From a virus (taxonomy: Duplodnaviria; Heunggongvirae; Uroviricota; Caudoviricetes), in IMG/VR virus record IMGVR_UViG_2711768019_000013: a stretch of DNA of 43,831 nt. One strand, 5' to 3'. The notes under the pieces are model-generated. The model was not told where the DNA came from and did not search any database. It saw only the letters and a list, made by a program, of their open reading frames with translations. Shown here in pieces: positions 1 through 36,510 of the stretch. The translations under genes were made by a program, and so were the position numbers. Each line of letters opens with the position of its first letter. The stretch's first letter is position 1.

Positions 1-3000
1 ATACGCTATACCGTTAAAAATAATGGGCGGAATAATAATCTGGCGGTCAAAGTTATGATCATCGCTGATGGTGACTGTAACCGTACCGTCTGGTGTTTCC
101 GTGTTACCCCACGTACCGACTTTTTTCGGGAAGGCTTTTGATACAGCTTTAACGAAATCTCCTCTGACCTGGGTCGCCTCCAGCATGCCCTTAATCGTAC
201 AGTTCTGGTTAATCGTGACATTGTTGAGCGTTCCTGAGTTCGCATTCACACTACCACTGATATCCGCATTTTTAGCGGTCAGCTTTCCGTCTGATGTCAG
301 GGAAAATACCGGAGGACTGCCACCGCTGGTAATGGCGGGGGCTGTCAGGCGCTTCAGGAACACGTCGTTCATGAATATCTGGTTGCCCTGCGCCACAAAC
401 ATCGGCGTTTCATTCCCGTTTGCCGGGTCAATAAACGCGATACGGTTAGCGGCAACCAGAAACTGGCTCAGTTTGCCTTCCTCCGTGTCCTCCATGCTGA
501 GGCCAATACCCGCGACATAATGTTTGCCGTCTTTGGTCTGCTCAATTTTGACGCCCCACATCGCATTCCATTTATCGTTAGCGTCCTTCCACTCTTTCGA
601 AAACTCATCCAGTCTGCTGGCGTTATCCTCCGTCAGATCAACTTTTTCCAGCAGCTCTTTACCGAGATGGGATTCGGTTATCTTGCCTTTGAAAAAATCC
701 AGGTAACCTTCCGCATCATCGCTCGCCCGACCGACGGCCTCCACGAATGCCGATTTGCCAACGGTGTTCACACTGCGGATATAAAAGTAATAATCATGGC
801 CCGGTTTGATATTGATACTGGCGGCTATCCAGTACAGCCCCGCGCCAAGGTAGCGGGCTGTGGTTTCAACCTGCCTGATATCGGTAATCCGCGTTTCCGA
901 GAACCAGAACTCAAACTGTACCGTCGGATCATAAACCGCAAGATGCGGCGTGGCAGTTATCTGAAAATAGCCCGGCGTCAGCTCAATCCGCGACGGTGCT
1001 ACCGGTGCGGCAATCCTGAACGATACCGACGCCGGATCGCCCTGCTGTCCCCAGGCATTTACCGCCCGGACTGTCAGCGTGTACCGTCCCAGCGCCAGTT
1101 GCGTGAAGCGGTATGTGGTTTCCGTCGTCCGGGCCGTGCTGACCAGCCGCTCACTGCCGTCATCCGCTGCCACGGTCAGGCGAAGCATAAAGCTCACCCC
1201 CTTCACCACCTTCGGCGTGTCCCAGCGCGCCAGCACCTGATATTCCCCGCTGTCTGCGGTGACTTCGGCAGTCAGGTGCTGCACCGCTGGCGGCGTGACA
1301 CCATTCACCGTGCCGCTCTGGTCGCCGTCAAAGTGCGCCCCGTTATCCACGATGGCTTCTTTTTCCGGTACATGCTGCACGGCAGTGATGGCATACGTGC
1401 CGTCATCGTTCTCACGGATACTCACACAGCGGAACAGGCGCTGGCGCAACGTCGGCAGCTTCAGCCCCCACACGCTGTATTCAGCAACGCCGTCAGGAAC
1501 ACGGCTCACTTTCACCTTCACGCCGTCGGTGACGGACTGAACCTCCACGCTGACCGGATTGCCACTTCCGTCAACCAGGCTTATCAGCATGGTACCGGAG
1601 GATGGCAGCGTGATTTCACGGTCGAGCGTCAGCGTCCGGGTCTGGCTGTTTACCGCCAGCACGCGCCCGCCGATGCTGATACCCGCATAGTCATCATCAC
1701 AGATTTCAATGACATCGCCCGGCACATGGCGAAGCCCTTCTGCGCCCACGCTGAAGTCCACGGTCTGCGTTTCCAGCAGTTCTGTTTTAATCAGCCACAG
1801 CCCGGCGCGGTGTGCCTGCCNNNNNNNNNNNNNNNNNNNNNNNNNNNNNNNNNNNNNNNNNNNNNNNNNNNNNNNNNNNNNNNNNNNNNNNNNNNNNNNN
1901 NNNNNNNNNNNNNNNNNNNNNNNNNNNNNNNNNNNNNNNNNNNNNNNNNNNNNNNNNNNNNNNNNNNNNNNNNNNNNNNNNNNNNNNNNNNNNNNNNNNN
2001 NNNNNNNNNNNNNNNNNNNNNNNNNNNNNNNNNNNNNNNNNNNNNNNNNNNNNNNNNNNNNNNNNNNNNNNNNNNNNNNNNNNNNNNNNNNNNNNNNNNN
2101 NNNNNNNNNNNNNNNNNNNNNNNNNNNNNNNNNNNNNNNNNNNNNNNNNNNNNNNNNNNNNNNNNNNNNATACAGCGCATCGCCGAGCAGAAATCACTGA
2201 GCACATCCCACGCCTTGCGCTGTGTGGTCAGGTACGCATTACAGGTGATGCGCGGCTCCGTGCCGCCAAAGCCGTCCGGCACTGACTGGTCGCAGTACTG
2301 GCCGATGACATACAGCGCCCATTTGTCCACATCCGCCGCACCAAGACGTTTCCCCATGCCGTAGCGCGGGTGGGTCAGCATATCCCACAGACACCAGGCC
2401 ATGTTGTTGCTGTATGCTGGTTTTAACGTTCCGTCCCAGATACCGCTGTATTGTCGCGTCTGCGGGTTATAGTTCGACGGCACCTGCAGAATGCGCCCGC
2501 GAAGATGATAATTACGACTCACCTGCTGGCTGCCGAACTGCTCCGAGTCCACCTGTACGCCGACCAGTGCAGTGTTCGGGTAGCACTGTTTCACATCGAT
2601 GATTTCGGTGTATGACGACCAGAGCGTTTTGTTCTGCAGCTGGTCTGTGGTGCTGTCCGGTGTCATCCTGCGCATCCGGATACTGAACGGGCGCGGAGGC
2701 AGGTTATCCACCACCACCGAGACCAGATACTGCGAGGTGGTTTTGCCCTTAATGGTGATGTCTTTTTCCGTCACCCAGCCACCGTTACGCTGTATCTGAA
2801 CCAGCAGGCGGACTTCCGACGGATTCCTGTCTCCCTTTGAGGTGGTTTCCACCAGTGCCTGTACACCGAAGGTAAAGCGCAGACGGTCGATGTTTGCCGA
2901 CGTGATGGTCCGGGTGATCGGCGTGTCATATTTCACTTCCGTACCCAGCACCGTCTCGGAGCCGGAGGATTCAAATCCCTCCGGCGGTGACTGCTCCTGC

Positions 3001-3215
3001 TCACCTGCCCGGAACACCACCGTGACGCCGGAGATGTTGGTATTCCCCTCACTGTCCAGCACCGGCGTACTGTTCAGCAGCACGCTTTTTAATCCATCCA
3101 CCGGACCTTCAACCGGCCCTTCGCTGATGGCATCGATCACACTCAGCAGCTGCGTGGACTTCAGGTTGTCCTTCGCTTCGCGCGGGGTATGCCCCTTACT
3201 GCTGCCTTTACCCAT
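1..3215 (-). CDS. J: Tail tip host-specificity protein J (central tail fibre), partial; N-terminus at 3215, C-terminus runs off the window start; interrupted by gap 1821-2169
   Basis: Minus-strand ATG at 3213-3215 gives [24 protein letters not shown]..., lambda gpJ-like. The same strand stays open below the gap ([20 protein letters not shown] near 1741-1800; [12 protein letters not shown] at 1-60). Track ORF 520-2364 (+) is the antisense frame. Confidence 0.85.
1821..2169. other. Assembly gap (349 N) inside J
   Basis: Run of n characters; length not a multiple of 3, so ORF-track frames across it are unreliable. Confidence 0.99.
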
Positions 3216-25605: not shown

Positions 25606-26194
25606 TTTTCCTCACATATGTCATATAGTAAAGGATTATATATACCGTTGTTTTGGACGCTCAAACAGCGAATCAGATCAAATAAAACGCACATTTGTTA
25701 ACATTTACACAAAGTCTGCGTGGGATATTCTGAAAGAATATCCATAATGTGGAGAGAATCTATTGAAGTGCATGGTGCCGGGTGCCTCCCGGTGAACAAA
25801 ATGTTCGTGATACCTGTCGGCGACAGAAAAGGTTAATGGTATCACCCCACCGCACAGGGGGATTCACCATGCAGGAGTTTTCTTAGCAAACTCACTGCGC
25901 GCCCGGCAACTCCCAACCACATAAAATGCGGAGTTTGTGGCATTTATGCATATAACTCGCAGGAATTATCTTAAAAAACTGATGTCGATCCGGATTAAAA
26001 AGAAGCAGGTCATCATCAGATGACTGGAAAAAAGGAAAACAAAAAATACTCATCATACAGTTTTGATTGCAGGGATGAGCCTGCTATGCACAATATGCAG
26101 AATATAAGCAAGATAAAAATATGCAGGCATATTATTTCGGATCTTGTTATTAACACAACCTTTTTAATAATCATTTGGCATACAATAAACCAGC

Positions 26195-28078: not shown

Positions 28079-28358
28079 TTCTCAATCTCTCGATGGCGCA
28101 GCGCAGCAGATGCCAGTTGTTCAGGCTGACGAATAAAGTATAAATAAACTGGCTATGGTGTAAAGCCCCACATAGCATGAACAAACACTACATATCAAAT
28201 AGCTGGTACAAGGATAGAAATACGACACTTATTATTAAAAACGATTAGATAAATTACATTTTAATGTTATGCAAAAGTTCTTTTTTATCATAACATTTCA
28301 ATAAAAGCATTACAGATGCAATCATCCCGTCATCATCAATTATTTAAGGTGGTTAAAC

Positions 28359-29850: not shown

Positions 29851-30852
29851 TTAGTAATCTGCGTGTTTCGCACTTTTCAGAAATGCTTTCATATTTTCAT
29901 TAGGTCGCTCAATTTCGAAGTTACTTCCATATAACTCTTGTAATTTTGGCCATAACTTACTTAATAACCCTCTCCTGCGATAAAATGGATGTATCCAAAC
30001 GGTAGATAGGTACGGAGAATTTGCATTTGAATTGTTTATTGTGACCAGCCCAACTAAACATTGTCGATAACCACTATTATCCATTGATTGTATTTCTTCG
30101 ACGAATGGATACGCGATTACATCAGTCCAACCATGATCGGTTGTATCCCATTGCATTCCGTCATGACATTCCTTCGACTGATAGCGGCGTAAAGCTACAC
30201 ACGCGAGCTTTTGCCAATCTGGAGAATTAATTGTGATCTCTTCATCGTATGACGCGCCTATTGGAGCGGGTATTGGTCTGATTAATCCAGCATGGCATTC
30301 ATCATAGAACTTCATGTTTCCCTCAGAAACGTTGTGTACGTTGGGTTGCTCCATGTGTGCGCCATTCAAAAATAGCTCTGATAGTAGTGTATCTACACTG
30401 TAATCTTTATTGATTATTGTCGGCTTAGAGTTTTTCTTATTAAGGCCGCGAGTAACGATTTTTTGATCAATGTTAACAACATGGAATAATCCGTCGGGGA
30501 GGCTAGCGAACCACGATGGGGCATCGGACCAGAATAGCATGCCTTTTGTACTTCTTAAGAGTTTAATTAAGTTAATACAAGCTTCTTCACTAGTCTTGCC
30601 GTTGATGCGAAGTATGTTAGGACTAAAGTAATATTCATCCATATCAGGGAATGCAGCTTCGCAAAACTCCTGTACATAATTTAGCACCTGGATTCTACAG
30701 AGATCATCATAGCTGGTAATAACTAAGGGGGTATCTTCATTACTATTATGATTATCAATAATGCAATCTATAGCGAGACTTACTGCTTTGCGTATCACTT
30801 CAGTTGAATCTAACGACTCTAAAAATTTTGTCTTTCGTGTGCGAATATCCAT
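29851..30852 (-). CDS. Hypothetical protein (333 aa), second gene of an AT-rich two-gene operon; C-terminal region weakly GNAT acetyltransferase-like
   Basis: Start ATG 30852 lies 15 nt after the ORF A stop; C-terminal ...CLVGLVTINNSNANSPYLSTVWIHPFYRRRGLLSKLWPKL... resembles GNAT motif A (compare RimI FQRRGLG); N-terminal 200 aa unrecognised; low GC. Confidence 0.55.
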   Translation of the reverse strand: MDIRTRKTKFLESLDSTEVIRKAVSLAIDCIIDNHNSNEDTPLVITSYDDLCRIQVLNYVQEFCEAAFPDMDEYYFSPNILRINGKTSEEACINLIKLLRSTKGMLFWSDAPSWFASLPDGLFHVVNIDQKIVTRGLNKKNSKPTIINKDYSVDTLLSELFLNGAHMEQPNVHNVSEGNMKFYDECHAGLIRPIPAPIGASYDEEITINSPDWQKLACVALRRYQSKECHDGMQWDTTDHGWTDVIAYPFVEEIQSMDNSGYRQCLVGLVTINNSNANSPYLSTVWIHPFYRRRGLLSKLWPKLQELYGSNFEIERPNENMKAFLKSAKHADY

Positions 30853-30867
30853 GTATGACCTGCGCTA

Positions 30868-31890
30868 TTAAAATTCATGAATGAACGGTTTGTCATCTGG
30901 TTGCAAAATGGTGGTTTTATTCGTTGCTACATTTAAACTGTTGTAGAGCATAATTGCCAGGTTCGATGCATTTTCAATCAGCGTTTCAAGATCCTGGTCT
31001 GTAATCACTACGAGGTTCCCTTCTTTATCCTTTCCACCACGATGCACTAAGTGATTTCGATTGAGGGTTGCCAATTCAATAGCTTCTATCGGACAGTCTT
31101 TTTGTACTTTTATATCGAATGTAGCTTCATAGCGGTCGATTACCTTTTTAGTGCTATGCCAGCTTGCACTGATCAAGTGTTCCTTGATTGACCTGATTAG
31201 CTCTCCCCTAATTTTCTCGATGGGTTCACCCTTGAAAGGCAACGCAGCAATATCTTTGCTTACTTTAAATTCAGTCTTACCTTTTTCTATACAATTGGCT
31301 ATGTAGACATCATCTTTCTCTATAGAATTAATGAATAGCTCAACATAAAGCGTTTCCAAAGCTGTAATAACATTCGTGTAGAGCAAACTAAGCAAGTGGT
31401 TTTTTTGCTGTTGTTCAGTTTTATCTTTTGCAAGTTTTTTTATTTTATCGATATTATCAATGAATTTTAAATACGGATTACCGGAAGACGTTACAGCGTC
31501 GTAGATATCATCATCGTACCAATCATCTATATTATTTGAGTTTCCAGACCAGTCAAAACATTGTGTTTGTAATTCATCTACTAATTCCTCAATATACTCA
31601 GATTTAACATATTGACCGAAGATGGATTGTAGTTCTTCGCTCGCATCATACGGCCCGCCATATATGTAAGCATAGCCACCTTCTCTACTTTCATACGGAC
31701 AAGCATTTGCCGGATCTTCAAAGTTTTCAAAGAACCAGTTTTTCATTACTTCGAGTTGATCTTTTTTGCTTATGTATTTTAAAGATTTTAGTGGAACTTT
31801 CTTTCCATTAACCTCGAAAACAATTTTCACGATGTAACGCTCCCTTGTATCAATTGCGCAACTATTATACCACAGCGAAATACAGGGCAT
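30868..31890 (-). CDS. Hypothetical protein (340 aa), first gene of the AT-rich two-gene operon; C-terminal R-x4-H (HEPN-like) motif
   Basis: Strong AAGGAGG Shine-Dalgarno 6 nt before ATG 31890 (MPCISLWYNSC...); C-terminal ...ATLNRNHLVHRGG... fits the Rx4-6H pattern; no family recognised by eye; low GC. Confidence 0.55.
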   Translation of the reverse strand: MPCISLWYNSCAIDTRERYIVKIVFEVNGKKVPLKSLKYISKKDQLEVMKNWFFENFEDPANACPYESREGGYAYIYGGPYDASEELQSIFGQYVKSEYIEELVDELQTQCFDWSGNSNNIDDWYDDDIYDAVTSSGNPYLKFIDNIDKIKKLAKDKTEQQQKNHLLSLLYTNVITALETLYVELFINSIEKDDVYIANCIEKGKTEFKVSKDIAALPFKGEPIEKIRGELIRSIKEHLISASWHSTKKVIDRYEATFDIKVQKDCPIEAIELATLNRNHLVHRGGKDKEGNLVVITDQDLETLIENASNLAIMLYNSLNVATNKTTILQPDDKPFIHEF

Positions 31891-31928
31891 AACCTGCCTC
31901 CTTAAACTAACATACCATGAGCCAGCAA

Positions 31929-31954
31929 TGTCCGCTATTGGCACAAAGCGGACA
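31929..31954. promoter_or_regulatory. Perfect 8-10-8 inverted repeat (TGTCCGCT-N10-AGCGGACA) upstream of ORF A; candidate operator
   Basis: Plus-strand tgtccgct attggcacaa agcggaca at 31929-31954, about 40 nt upstream of the ORF A start on the minus strand; not followed by a U-run, so not a terminator. Confidence 0.4.
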
Positions 31955-32028
31955 ACCACGCTAGCTCTCCCCTGTGCCAGAAAAATGTCAATTTACATAT
32001 GAACTAATGCTCTTTGATCTAGTAACGT

Positions 32029-33244: not shown

Positions 33245-34036
33245 TTACTTCTCAATTCCTGGCTGGACGACATTCGGACGCCAGCTCTCCCAGTTAAAAT
33301 TCACCCATCGCCNNNNNNNNNNNNNNNNNNNNNNNNNNNNNNNNNNNNNNNNNNNNNNNNNNNNNNNNNNNNNNNNNNNNNNNNNNNNNNNNNNNNNNNN
33401 NNNNNNNNNNNNNNNNNNNNNNNNNNNNNNNNNNNNNNNNNNNNNNNNNNNNNNNNNNNNNNNNNNNNNNNNNNNNNNNNNNNNNNNNNNNNNNNNNNNN
33501 NNNNNNNNNNNNNNNNNNNNNNNNNNNNNNNNNNNNNNNNNNNNNNNNNNNNNNNNNNNNNNNNNNNNNNNNNNNNNNNNNNNNNNNNNNNNNNNNNNNN
33601 NNNNNNNNNNNNNNNNNNNNNNNNNNNNNNNNNNNNNNNNNNNNNNNNNNNNNNNNNNNNNNNNNNNNNNNNNGATAGCTGCCGCTAAGTGGTTCTTCCC
33701 GGTACCAGGTTTTCCGCTGAACGCAAAATTTGTACACCCGGTCATCAGTTCATCAGCGATGGATTTCGCCTGACTCAACGCGTATCGCTGCGCTTCGTTC
33801 TGCACCTGGTAATTCGAAAACGAGCATTTGCGGTGCAATGGCTGGATGCCAGAGCGATTCAGAATTTTTTCCACCCGCAACTGACGATTCTGACGGTTGA
33901 TCTCCTCACAACGTTTCTGGCCTTCGGAAAGTTGCCACTCGCGCCACTCCGCTACCGTCTTGAATGGCGCGGTTACATGTGACGGGGCCAGTCTGCGGAT
34001 ACGTTCAAGAACGTCGCCTGTCGCAATATTTTTCAT
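33245..34036 (-). CDS. DnaC-like replication protein (AAA+ helicase loader, lambda P analogue); interrupted by gap 33313-33673
   Basis: Walker [17 protein letters not shown] just before the gap; N-terminal ...[40 protein letters not shown]... typical of DnaC-family N-domains; follows the O-like gene. Confidence 0.65.
33313..33673. other. Assembly gap (361 N) inside the DnaC-like gene
   Basis: Run of n characters. Confidence 0.99.
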
Positions 34037-34912: not shown

Positions 34913-35335
34913 TTAATGAACAATGACAGAATCGTCGGAAGACCCGCCGCCGCTGAAATGCGCTTTCCGGTAAACGGCTTGGACTGCATCATCATGCGCA
35001 TCAATTGCCGTACTTAACGCTTCCTGCGCCGCCAGTAATGCACGGCGTTCCAGGGTATCGAAGATGCAGAGTCGGTGACGCAGCTCGCGCGGAAGGATTG
35101 CCAGAATTGCTGGGATCAGCTTCTGAATTTTTTCTCTTTGCGTTTTCGTTTCACCTTTCAACCAACGGTGATAGATATTCTGCTGATTATTCCAGTCCTT
35201 GCCTGGTACCAGGGGCAATTCGCCGCCCCCCTGGCGCAGATATTCTTCAGTAATGGCATTGGCTACCCATGCCTGCCCTTTTTCGGCTGCCAGGGCTAAC
35301 AACACTGACTCGATGTGCTCATGCTTGATTTTCAT
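34913..35335 (-). CDS. YdaT-like protein (cII position; reported Rac toxin partner of YdaS)
   Basis: 140 aa, MKIKHEHIESVLLALAAEKGQAWVANAITEEYLRQGGGELPLVPGKDWNNQQNIYHRWLKGETKTQREKI...; ATGA overlap with the upstream Cro-like gene. Confidence 0.6.
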   Translation of the reverse strand: MKIKHEHIESVLLALAAEKGQAWVANAITEEYLRQGGGELPLVPGKDWNNQQNIYHRWLKGETKTQREKIQKLIPAILAILPRELRHRLCIFDTLERRALLAAQEALSTAIDAHDDAVQAVYRKAHFSGGGSSDDSVIVH

Positions 35336-35586
35336 GAATCAACTCCCATCAGCTTTTTCGTAGTAGTTTTATTTCTGCCAATAGTTAAAATTACATCAGC
35401 AGAAAATAATCCGTTTGATGCATGAGCGATTTTTTCAGCGTAATTTGTTTCGCCGGTATATTCTGTGCGAGGCAATTTTCCGTTATCCATCCATTTGTAG
35501 ATTGCTCTTTGGCTGACACCACAAACGTCGGCCACAACAGAAACGCGAACAGTTTTGATTACATCTTCAAGTGTTTTCTGGTTCAT
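35332..35586 (-). CDS. Cro-like HTH protein (Rac YdaS position), start at MNQKTLEDV
   Basis: GAGGGTG Shine-Dalgarno before ATG 35586; HTH ...VADVCGVSQRAIYKWMDNGKLP...; divergent from the repressor gene. Confidence 0.6.
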   Translation of the reverse strand: MNQKTLEDVIKTVRVSVVADVCGVSQRAIYKWMDNGKLPRTEYTGETNYAEKIAHASNGLFSADVILTIGRNKTTTKKLMGVDS

Positions 35587-35647
35587 ATCACCCTCACAAT
35601 GTGAACTTTGAGTACATGCTATAACAGAACTGACAGTACATTCAAGA
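35587..35647. promoter_or_regulatory. Divergent immunity-region promoter/operator (repressor versus cro-like)
   Basis: Minus-strand candidate promoter TTGAAT (35640-35645) -16- TATAGC (35618-35623); direct repeats AGTACAT at 35611-35617 and 35635-35641 overlap it. Confidence 0.4.
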
Positions 35648-36085
35648 GTGAATATCATTGAACTTATGGTTCATGAAGATAAAGCGCGTAAAGAGTTCGC
35701 CAGTAGGCTTGCGCTAGCCTGTGAAAACGCTGGTTATGAACAACATGGAAGGCAGGCAGAAATTGCCCGTCGAATGAAATTAACACCAAAAGCGGTTAGC
35801 AAATGGTTTAATGGCGAAACAATTCCTCGCCGAGAGAAATTAAGGGAATTAGCAACACTCATTGGAACAACACCAACCTATCTTTTGGGAGAGGATACAG
35901 AAGAAAGTGGACAGGTACGTTTCTATCAGGAGTTAAATCCAAGACAAAAAATCATCATTGACCTTCTGGACGAGCTCCCTGACAGTGAGACAGATGAACT
36001 TTTAAAAACTCTTGAGGAGAAAAAACAGAAGTACAATGCAATTTACGAAGAGCTAGCACGAAAGAAAAAACAAAAAGCCTCTTAA
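35648..36085 (+). CDS. Prophage repressor, XRE-family HTH (Rac RacR position); track start is GTG 35648, alternative ATG 35666
   Basis: HTH ...RQAEIARRMKLTPKAVSKWFNGETIPRREKLRELATLIGTTPTYLL...; divergent from the cro-like gene; same orientation as the early-left arm. Confidence 0.6.
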   Translation: MNIIELMVHEDKARKEFASRLALACENAGYEQHGRQAEIARRMKLTPKAVSKWFNGETIPRREKLRELATLIGTTPTYLLGEDTEESGQVRFYQELNPRQKIIIDLLDELPDSETDELLKTLEEKKQKYNAIYEELARKKKQKAS

Positions 36086-36375
36086 ACCAGCATAAATCCG
36101 GTAGCGTCCCCCTCCGGGTTTGTGCTTCACTTTATCCCATCTCATTTTTTTACACACAAAATGTACTTATAGTACTTTACATCAATGAACACAAAGTACA
36201 TTATATACCTACCAACCCACCCCGCCCCACAGAACGCAGGGCAATACTTCGAGTTACCAGGCAGTGGTCAGGGGTTAAGTAGCCAGCCCGAGGCGTATGA
36301 ACATGACGGCAGGGTTCAGATTTTGCAGTGCAGCAGGTTTCAGTTCCGCCACCCGGCGTTAAGGGGAGAGATAAG

Positions 36376-36510
36376 ATGGTGCATTACGAAGTAGTTCAGT
36401 ATTTGATGGATTGTTGCGGTATCACTTACAACCAGGCTGTGCAGGCTTTACGCAGCAACGACTGGGATCTCTGGCAGGCAGAAGTCGCTATACACAGCAA
36501 CAAGATGTGA
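36376..36510 (+). CDS. Small protein (44 aa from MVHYEVVQYL), Rac ydaF-like position
   Basis: GGGGAGAG before ATG 36376; the upstream part of the track ORF has no ribosome-binding site. Confidence 0.4.
   Translation: MVHYEVVQYLMDCCGITYNQAVQALRSNDWDLWQAEVAIHSNKM

Follow-up and report, generated by a model that had tools for sequence, protein, structure and literature searches.

A probable HK022-type immunity switch, with previously unannotated operators, in a Rac-like lambdoid prophage of Escherichia coli

The window, by which we mean the whole analyzed stretch of 43,831 nucleotides (43.8 kb), is a Rac-like lambdoid prophage of E. coli. It carries a repressor gene and, divergent from it, a cro-like gene (Table 1). 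To the left of the cro-like gene are ydaT, a DUF1376 ydaU-like gene and a DnaC-like gene. Genes encoded to the right of the repressor include ydaG/ydaF-like genes, sieB and a recE-like gene. The region has the general lambdoid layout: the repressor gene lies between two candidate operator clusters over divergent early promoters, and a cro-type gene is first in the rightward operon. The stretch from 35300 to 36400 is carried at coverage of at least 80% by 1047 complete E. coli genomes, and phages Tritos and vB_EcoS-666R9 are 96-98% identical to it. A scan of 35300-36500 identified no terminators.

Table 1. Genes, predicted promoters and candidate operators of the immunity region (window coordinates). 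The dyad pattern is TGWAC-N5-GTWCA; matrix ranks refer to a weight matrix built from HK022 operators.
Feature	Position	Strand	Sequence or elements	HK022 counterpart	Remarks
Repressor gene	35666-36085	+			139 aa; Pfam HTH_3; start as annotated in Tritos and 666R9
cro-like gene	35332-35586	-	Shine-Dalgarno GAGGG (35595 to 35591)		84 aa
YdaT box	35325-35342		TTGATT-N6-AATCAA		Only exact match in window; belongs to the cII-equivalent rather than to the repressor
PR	35618-35645	-	-35 TTGAAT (35645 to 35640); 16-nt spacer; -10 TATAGC (35623 to 35618)
PRM-like promoter	35630-35658	+	CTGACA-17-TATCAT		Promoter scan, 10/12 matches
PL	36176-36204	+	TTTACA-17-CATTAT		Promoter scan; toward ydaG/ydaF-like, kil and recE-like genes
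OR1	35602-35616		TGAACTTTGAGTACA	TGAACTTATGGTTCA (oR1, 3057-3071)	Exact pattern match; third-best matrix score
OR2	35626-35640		AGAACTGACAGTACA	GGAACTGATAGTACA	One mismatch to pattern; 24 bp from OR1
OR3	35659-35673		TGAACTTATGGTTCA	TGAACTTATGGTTCA	Exact pattern match; best matrix score; 33 bp from OR2; identical to HK022 at 15/15 positions
OL2	36162-36176		TGTACTTATAGTACT	TGTACTATTGGTACT	One mismatch to pattern; second-best matrix score; homologous to HK022 oL
OL1	36186-36200		TGAACACAAAGTACA	TGAACTTTAAGTACA	Exact pattern match; 24 bp from OL2

Elsewhere in the window, 960 bases are N, and runs of X in the DnaC/YdaV-like ORF at 33245-34036 (in the region 33294-34036) leave that gene partly masked. 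Two adjoining minus-strand ORFs (333 and 363 aa; 29854-31959) have weak, sub-threshold Pfam matches to GNAT acetyltransferase and HEPN_RES_NTD1. With the replication region on one side and the Q-like (DUF1133) region on the other, they could be cargo of the moron or defence kind.

Three promoters are predicted. The original prediction placed a minus-strand TTGAAT-16-TATAGC promoter ahead of the cro-like operon, and this promoter, PR, is indeed in the sequence, at the same positions as the -35 and -10 of HK022 pR. Its -10 is preceded by TG (35626-35625), giving the extended -10 form, and it was not listed by our promoter scan because the hexamer lacks the final T. The -10 column reads CATAAT in HK022 and in the Salmonella and Raoultella relatives, as against TATAGC with its TG extension in the window. 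PR would transcribe the cro-like gene, ydaT and the replication genes, presumably with a start near 35611.

The PRM-like promoter points into the repressor gene. A gap of 7 nt separates its -10 from the A of the repressor's start codon, and no Shine-Dalgarno sequence was identified upstream of that ATG. Thus, we infer that the repressor mRNA is leaderless, with a predicted start at this A. A TATNNT hexamer adjoins the third right operator in all seven of the lineages compared below. The plus-strand TTTACA-17-CATTAT promoter that had been proposed to head into the opposite early arm was returned by the scan as PL. It also coincides in position with the -35 and -10 of its HK022 counterpart, pL, and its TTTACA (36176-36181) is invariant in the seven lineages.

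It had been proposed that AGTACAT heptamers flanking the repressor gene are operator half-sites at the two early promoters. The heptamers themselves are present: on the plus strand exactly at 35611-35617 and 35635-35641, on the minus strand as ATGTACT at 36161-36167, and as the one-mismatch copy AGTACTT at 36171-36177. The last plus-strand copy is also present, but at 36195-36201, one base to the left of where it had been placed. Across the window AGTACAT occurs five times where 3.76 copies are expected, and 33 of 100 shuffles reach five, so the enrichment that had been put forward as a check is lacking in the overall count. Clustering, by contrast, goes beyond chance. Four of the five copies fall within 591 bp, and at least four copies within 600 bp were found in none of 2000 dinucleotide shuffles of the whole window. 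Four copies were likewise reached in none of 20,000 shuffles of the local 790 bp, nor of its 370 noncoding bases.

A repeat finder identified a longer repeat around the heptamers (TGAACTTTGAGTACATGCTATA, AGAACTGACAGTACATTCAAGA and TGAACACAAAGTACATTATATA), and a resemblance between TGAACTTATGGT (35659) and TGTACTTATAGT (36162). These repeats can be read as a 15-bp dyad, TG(A/T)AC-N5-GT(A/T)CA, present at five sites (Table 1). Two partial palindromes noted by eye, ATGT-N11-ACAT and ATTCA-N4-TGAAT, were dropped, as the 22-nt repeat family showed the true register. In the dyad register, AGTACAT begins with the final base of the spacer, runs through the right arm GTACA and takes in a single T beyond it. 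Its appearance as a direct repeat arises because in OR1, OR2 and OL1, which share one orientation, the left arm is GAAC and the right arm GTAC. OR3 was overlooked earlier because its arms are GTTCA. ATGTACT and AGTACTT, previously taken for separate copies in the left cluster, are the two arms of a single operator, OL2.

OR1, which includes the first AGTACAT, follows directly after the PR -10 and extends over the predicted start of PR. OR2, with the second AGTACAT, occupies the PR spacer and reaches the -35, and its own spacer contains the PRM-like -35 CTGACA. OR3 spans the repressor ATG (35666-35668) and adjoins the PRM-like -10. Across the repressor gene, OL2 is immediately upstream of the PL -35 and overlaps its first base; OL1 is in the PL spacer, overlaps the start of the PL -10 and includes the last AGTACAT. 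The OL and OR clusters are about 580 bp apart.

Exact matches to TGWAC-N5-GTWCA occur three times in the 43.8 kb, against 0.125 expected, and all three (35602, 35659 and 36186) are within the region. With up to one mismatch allowed, five of the 11 matches in the window lie in the region. None of 1000 shuffles had three or more exact matches, and none had more than three matches in 600 bp. These match and shuffle statistics are inflated, since the window itself supplied the pattern. Circularity of this kind does not affect a weight matrix made solely from the five operator features of the HK022 record X16093. The top five positions of this matrix in the whole window are exactly the five sites; in shuffles, a mean of 0.8 positions (maximum 4) score at or above the fifth.

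These results bear on the view that the repeats are due to chance or composition, being A+T-rich promoter DNA without regulatory meaning. The unremarkable window-wide count of the heptamer fits such a view, as do the six other one-mismatch dyads, which are scattered outside the region in a number near the chance level of 3.8. The clustering that no shuffle reproduced, the independent recovery of the sites by the HK022-only matrix and, as described below, the conservation of arms but not of spacers in seven lineages argue against it, and we give it almost no credence. Two of the scattered dyads, TGAACAAAATGTTCG (25793-25807) and TGAACAAACACTACA (28178-28192), lie close to the Q-like antiterminator region. 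As the count of such matches is near chance, neither is likely to be an operator.

The HK022 immunity region is said to have been described by Oberto et al. in 1989 and by Carlson and Little in 1993. We took the HK022 operator data from the GenBank features of X16093 and from PMC8053113. The record has oR features at 3000-3014 (across the cI start), 3033-3047 and 3057-3071, oL features at 2201-2215 and 2225-2239, and annotated pR and pL hexamers, with the pL -35 at 2220-2225. The operator spacings (33 and 24 bp at OR, 24 bp at OL) are equal in the window and HK022, and the -35 and -10 hexamers of HK022 pR and pL map base for base onto PR and PL. The window OR3 is identical at 15/15 positions not only to the corresponding HK022 site but also to HK022 oR1.

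The proteins support the same assignment. In tblastn searches, the N-terminal 80 aa of the repressor matched CI of HK022 and HK75 at 57-58% identity, and BLASTP aligned the repressor to HK022 CI at 47% over 99 aa (E 6e-32). The recognition helices are almost identical (TPKAVSKWFNGETIPR in the window repressor against TPKAISKWFNGESIPR in HK022 CI). The cro-like product shares 62% identity over 73 aa with HK022 Cro (BLASTP, E 2e-34). A (K/R)A(V/I)xKW recognition-helix motif is common to Cro and the repressor, which fits the reading of the same sites by both proteins. According to a passage in PMC8053113 that cites Carlson & Little (1993), HK022 CI binds adjacent OR and OL operators cooperatively and loops OL to OR.

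The likeness to HK022 and HK75 (record HM173637) extends to the 15-bp operator consensus, the spacings, the placement of operators relative to promoter hexamers and the third OR site over the repressor start. There are also differences. HK022 CI has an S24 peptidase with an Ala-Gly cleavage site, whereas the window repressor has a helical domain of about 60 aa. The HK022 cII is replaced in the window by a Rac-type YdaT with its own box, and in place of the HK022 early neighbours nun and cIII are Rac-like genes (sieB, ydaF/G and recE). We identified no counterpart, at up to one mismatch, of an HK022-type OL3 (53 bp from OL2) or of an HK022-type OFR (downstream of cro); the only nearby two-mismatch dyads are at 35423 and 36304.

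Conservation was evaluated across seven lineages: the window, phage Tritos, two Salmonella prophages, a Raoultella prophage, HK75 and HK022. Homologous loci were fetched from the two Salmonella prophages (62-65% repressor identity), a second E. coli type (88%) and Raoultella prophages (62%, N-terminal domain only), whose repressors carry a Peptidase_S24 C-terminal domain. A Shigella locus, the sole return of a genome scan with a single protein, was identical and hence uninformative for footprinting. Repressor identity across the compared lineages is as low as 47-65%. Alignments show that the operator arms are invariant in all seven while the 5-bp spacers vary. Between cro and the repressor gene, every fetched locus carries a trio of sites, at offsets 0, +24 and +57, the third of them over the repressor ATG. 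At the next promoter that reads rightward, each has TGTAC-N5-GTACT and TGAAC-N5-GTACA at a 24-bp spacing. The OL pair stays with PL despite cargo inserted after the repressor gene.

The cargo in this slot differs among lineages. In the Salmonella loci (L003, 2553-3220; L004, 2588-3255) it is a HigB toxin with an HTH_3 partner (HigA). In Raoultella (L007, 2808-4250) the slot holds a gene, perhaps for defence, that encodes a 480-aa AAA_15/AAA_21/SMC_N-like ATPase. The window has no cargo between the repressor gene and OL/PL.

The alignments are also relevant to the question of whether AGTACAT itself is the recognition unit, a direct-repeat half-site for tandem repressor subunits. Two direct copies 24 bp apart at OR and one more at OL would suit such a unit, and so would the T that follows GTACA at all five window sites. 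However, AGTACAT varies among relatives that have the same repressor domain (HK022, HK75, Salmonella and Raoultella): HK022 and HK75 have GGTTCAT at OR1, and at OR2 the word is AGTACAG in HK022 but AGTTCAC in the Salmonella and Raoultella prophages, with the dyad kept in every case. The left arms TGAAC, GGAAC and TGTAC are invariant in the seven lineages, and OR3, the best match to the HK022 matrix, has no AGTACAT. HTH_3 repressors of this family, such as those of 434, P22 and lambda, bind dyads. We consider a heptamer unit very unlikely. The heptamers are inside the HK022-homologous sites, but the unit is the 15-bp dyad and not a directly repeated 7-mer.

A different possibility is that the sites belong to the Rac or CP-933P type of switch, as operators of RacR or of PaaR2/YdaS, or as sites for YdaT. 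The neighbouring genes make this worth considering, as they are Rac-like (ydaT, ydaU, sieB, ydaF/G and recE) and in Rac gene order, and the window YdaT is 99% identical to that of K-12 Rac. The Rac RacR-YdaS-YdaT system (PMC9638921, PMC11879457) and the CP-933P PaaR2-YdaS-YdaT system (PMC8630535, PMC9986795) have the same layout, in which the repressor gene diverges from a cro-like gene that precedes ydaT. As in the window, they have a third operator over the repressor ATG, a repressor without a peptidase and a YdaT box at the ydaT start.

The repressors, Cro proteins and operators themselves differ. The window repressor and Cro are not homologues of RacR and YdaS; the alignments give no more than 12/33 and 6/18 identities, in the helix-turn-helix. 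The RacR box of Rac, WTAGGC-N3-GCCTAW, is absent from the region and from the window, as is the GTTTAGTAA repeat of CP-933P (18-bp palindromes) on both strands of the window. Conversely, K-12 Rac has no TGWAC-N5-GTWCA dyad at up to one mismatch.

YdaT has a site of its own in the window, with a different sequence and in a different place (Table 1). It straddles the cro-like stop and the ydaT start, with the ydaT ATG (35335 to 35333) in its spacer. YdaT sites have been published (PMC9986795), and the window box matches the footprinted K-12 Rac box ATGATTCATGAAAATCAA (PMC11879457) except that its first half is perfect; its left half comes from the last bases of the HK022-like cro, at the 3' end. 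In K-12, a YdaT footprint also covers the ydaS promoter, where there is no recognizable motif (PMC11879457), so some YdaT contact with OR is possible. As an explanation of the five dyads, a Rac- or CP-933P-type origin appears highly unlikely.

We conclude that the region is very probably an HK022-type lambdoid immunity switch with five dyads that, judging from sequence homology, would be bound by repressor dimers and by Cro. The OR/OL logic of the original prediction, with operators at PR- and PL-type promoters, gains support from the same homology. The region is a mosaic in which an HK022-type repressor domain, OR, Cro and OL are set within a Rac-type early region.

By analogy to HK022, repressor dimers would bind the five dyads via the HK022-CI-like helix-turn-helix, and the HK022-like Cro would use them also. 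Occupation of OR1 and OR2 would cover the PR start site, spacer and -35, and so shut off cro, ydaT and the replication genes. OL2 and OL1, when occupied, would enclose the PL -35 and take up the spacer, and so silence the kil/recE arm. OR3 would lie on the start codon and the inferred +1, and excess repressor, or Cro, at this site would shut off repressor synthesis. The presence of a consensus PRM-like -35 inside OR2 means that occupation of OR2 may either activate or repress repressor synthesis. What the analysis shows directly is the sequence, spacing, conservation and homology of the sites; binding, repression and the order of site filling are predicted from that homology.

Comparison with lambda is instructive. 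As in the window, lambda PR and PRM are divergent and share a tripartite OR, and the PL operators are beyond the repressor gene. Lambda OR1 and OR2 have a 24-bp centre-to-centre spacing, as does the cooperative-type pair in the window. The lambda cI mRNA is known to be leaderless, as is predicted for the window repressor. The lambda operators are unrelated in sequence and are 17 bp rather than 15 bp long, the OR2-OR3 spacing is 23 bp in lambda and 33 bp in the window, and lambda has three OL sites where the window has two. The lambda repressor also has a RecA-cleavable domain that the window repressor lacks.

The window repressor combines an HK022-CI-like HTH_3 N-terminal domain with a charged helical C-terminal domain of about 60 aa (approximately residues 80-139; 35903-36085). 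An AF2 model predicts three helices in residues 79-138 (79-89, 92-103 and 106-138; mean pLDDT 84.5). No S24 peptidase was identified by Pfam. The Raoultella and Klebsiella relatives have an S24 domain and a SAGPG motif; aligned with them, the window repressor has neither, and no Ala-Gly site. PDB sequence and Foldseek searches with the repressor returned generic helix-turn-helix matches only, and nothing for the C-terminal domain. The same DNA-binding domain and operator layout occur with S24 in Raoultella, Klebsiella and HK022, and with a short helical domain in E. coli and Salmonella.

In lambda-type repressors, the S24/LexA-like C-terminal domain mediates dimerization, pairwise cooperativity and looping. 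Given that S24 is absent here, the logic of the 24-bp pairs may not operate as it does in those repressors, and cooperativity and OL-OR looping with a different C-terminal domain are perhaps to be expected, with uncertainty. It is possible, though in our estimate a little short of an even call, that an HK022-type DNA-binding domain and full operator architecture, with 24-bp pairs, an autoregulatory site over the ATG and OL some 580 bp from OR, are run here by a repressor in which the oligomerization and induction domain has been swapped for an unrelated helical one. A different fold would then supply pairwise cooperativity and perhaps the looping between OL and OR, and induction would be RecA-independent (e.g., via an antirepressor encoded elsewhere) or absent, possibly with HK022 cross-immunity still retained.

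Gifsy prophage repressors, which lack a peptidase, are reportedly inactivated by antirepressors, in work ascribed to Lemire et al. in 2011. They are likewise short proteins with an N-terminal helix-turn-helix and without S24 or a cleavage site. In the window, however, a Pfam scan of ten further ORFs identified no antirepressor, and there is no LexA box (CTGT-N8-ACAG).

Immunity of this type is found in at least ~1000 complete E. coli genomes and in phages Tritos and vB_EcoS-666R9, and its operators and promoters are unannotated in the records examined. Assignment to the HK022 operator family predicts exact binding sites, promoters and possible cross-immunity with HK022 and HK75. The switch is ordinary and changes no concept; the swapped C-terminal domain is its sole moderately interesting aspect. 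This natural swap offers a way to ask how far switch logic depends on that domain.

One deposited sequence joins parts of both regulators. In a partial E. coli 'transcriptional regulator' (P0013), the Cro N-terminus (TVRVAVVADVCGVSQRAIYKWMDNGKLPRTEYTGET) is joined to the C-terminal part of the repressor (IPRREKLREL...), and the junction is a GET motif common to Cro and the repressor. Either the two genes, which are divergent and similar in part, have recombined, or the assembly is at fault.
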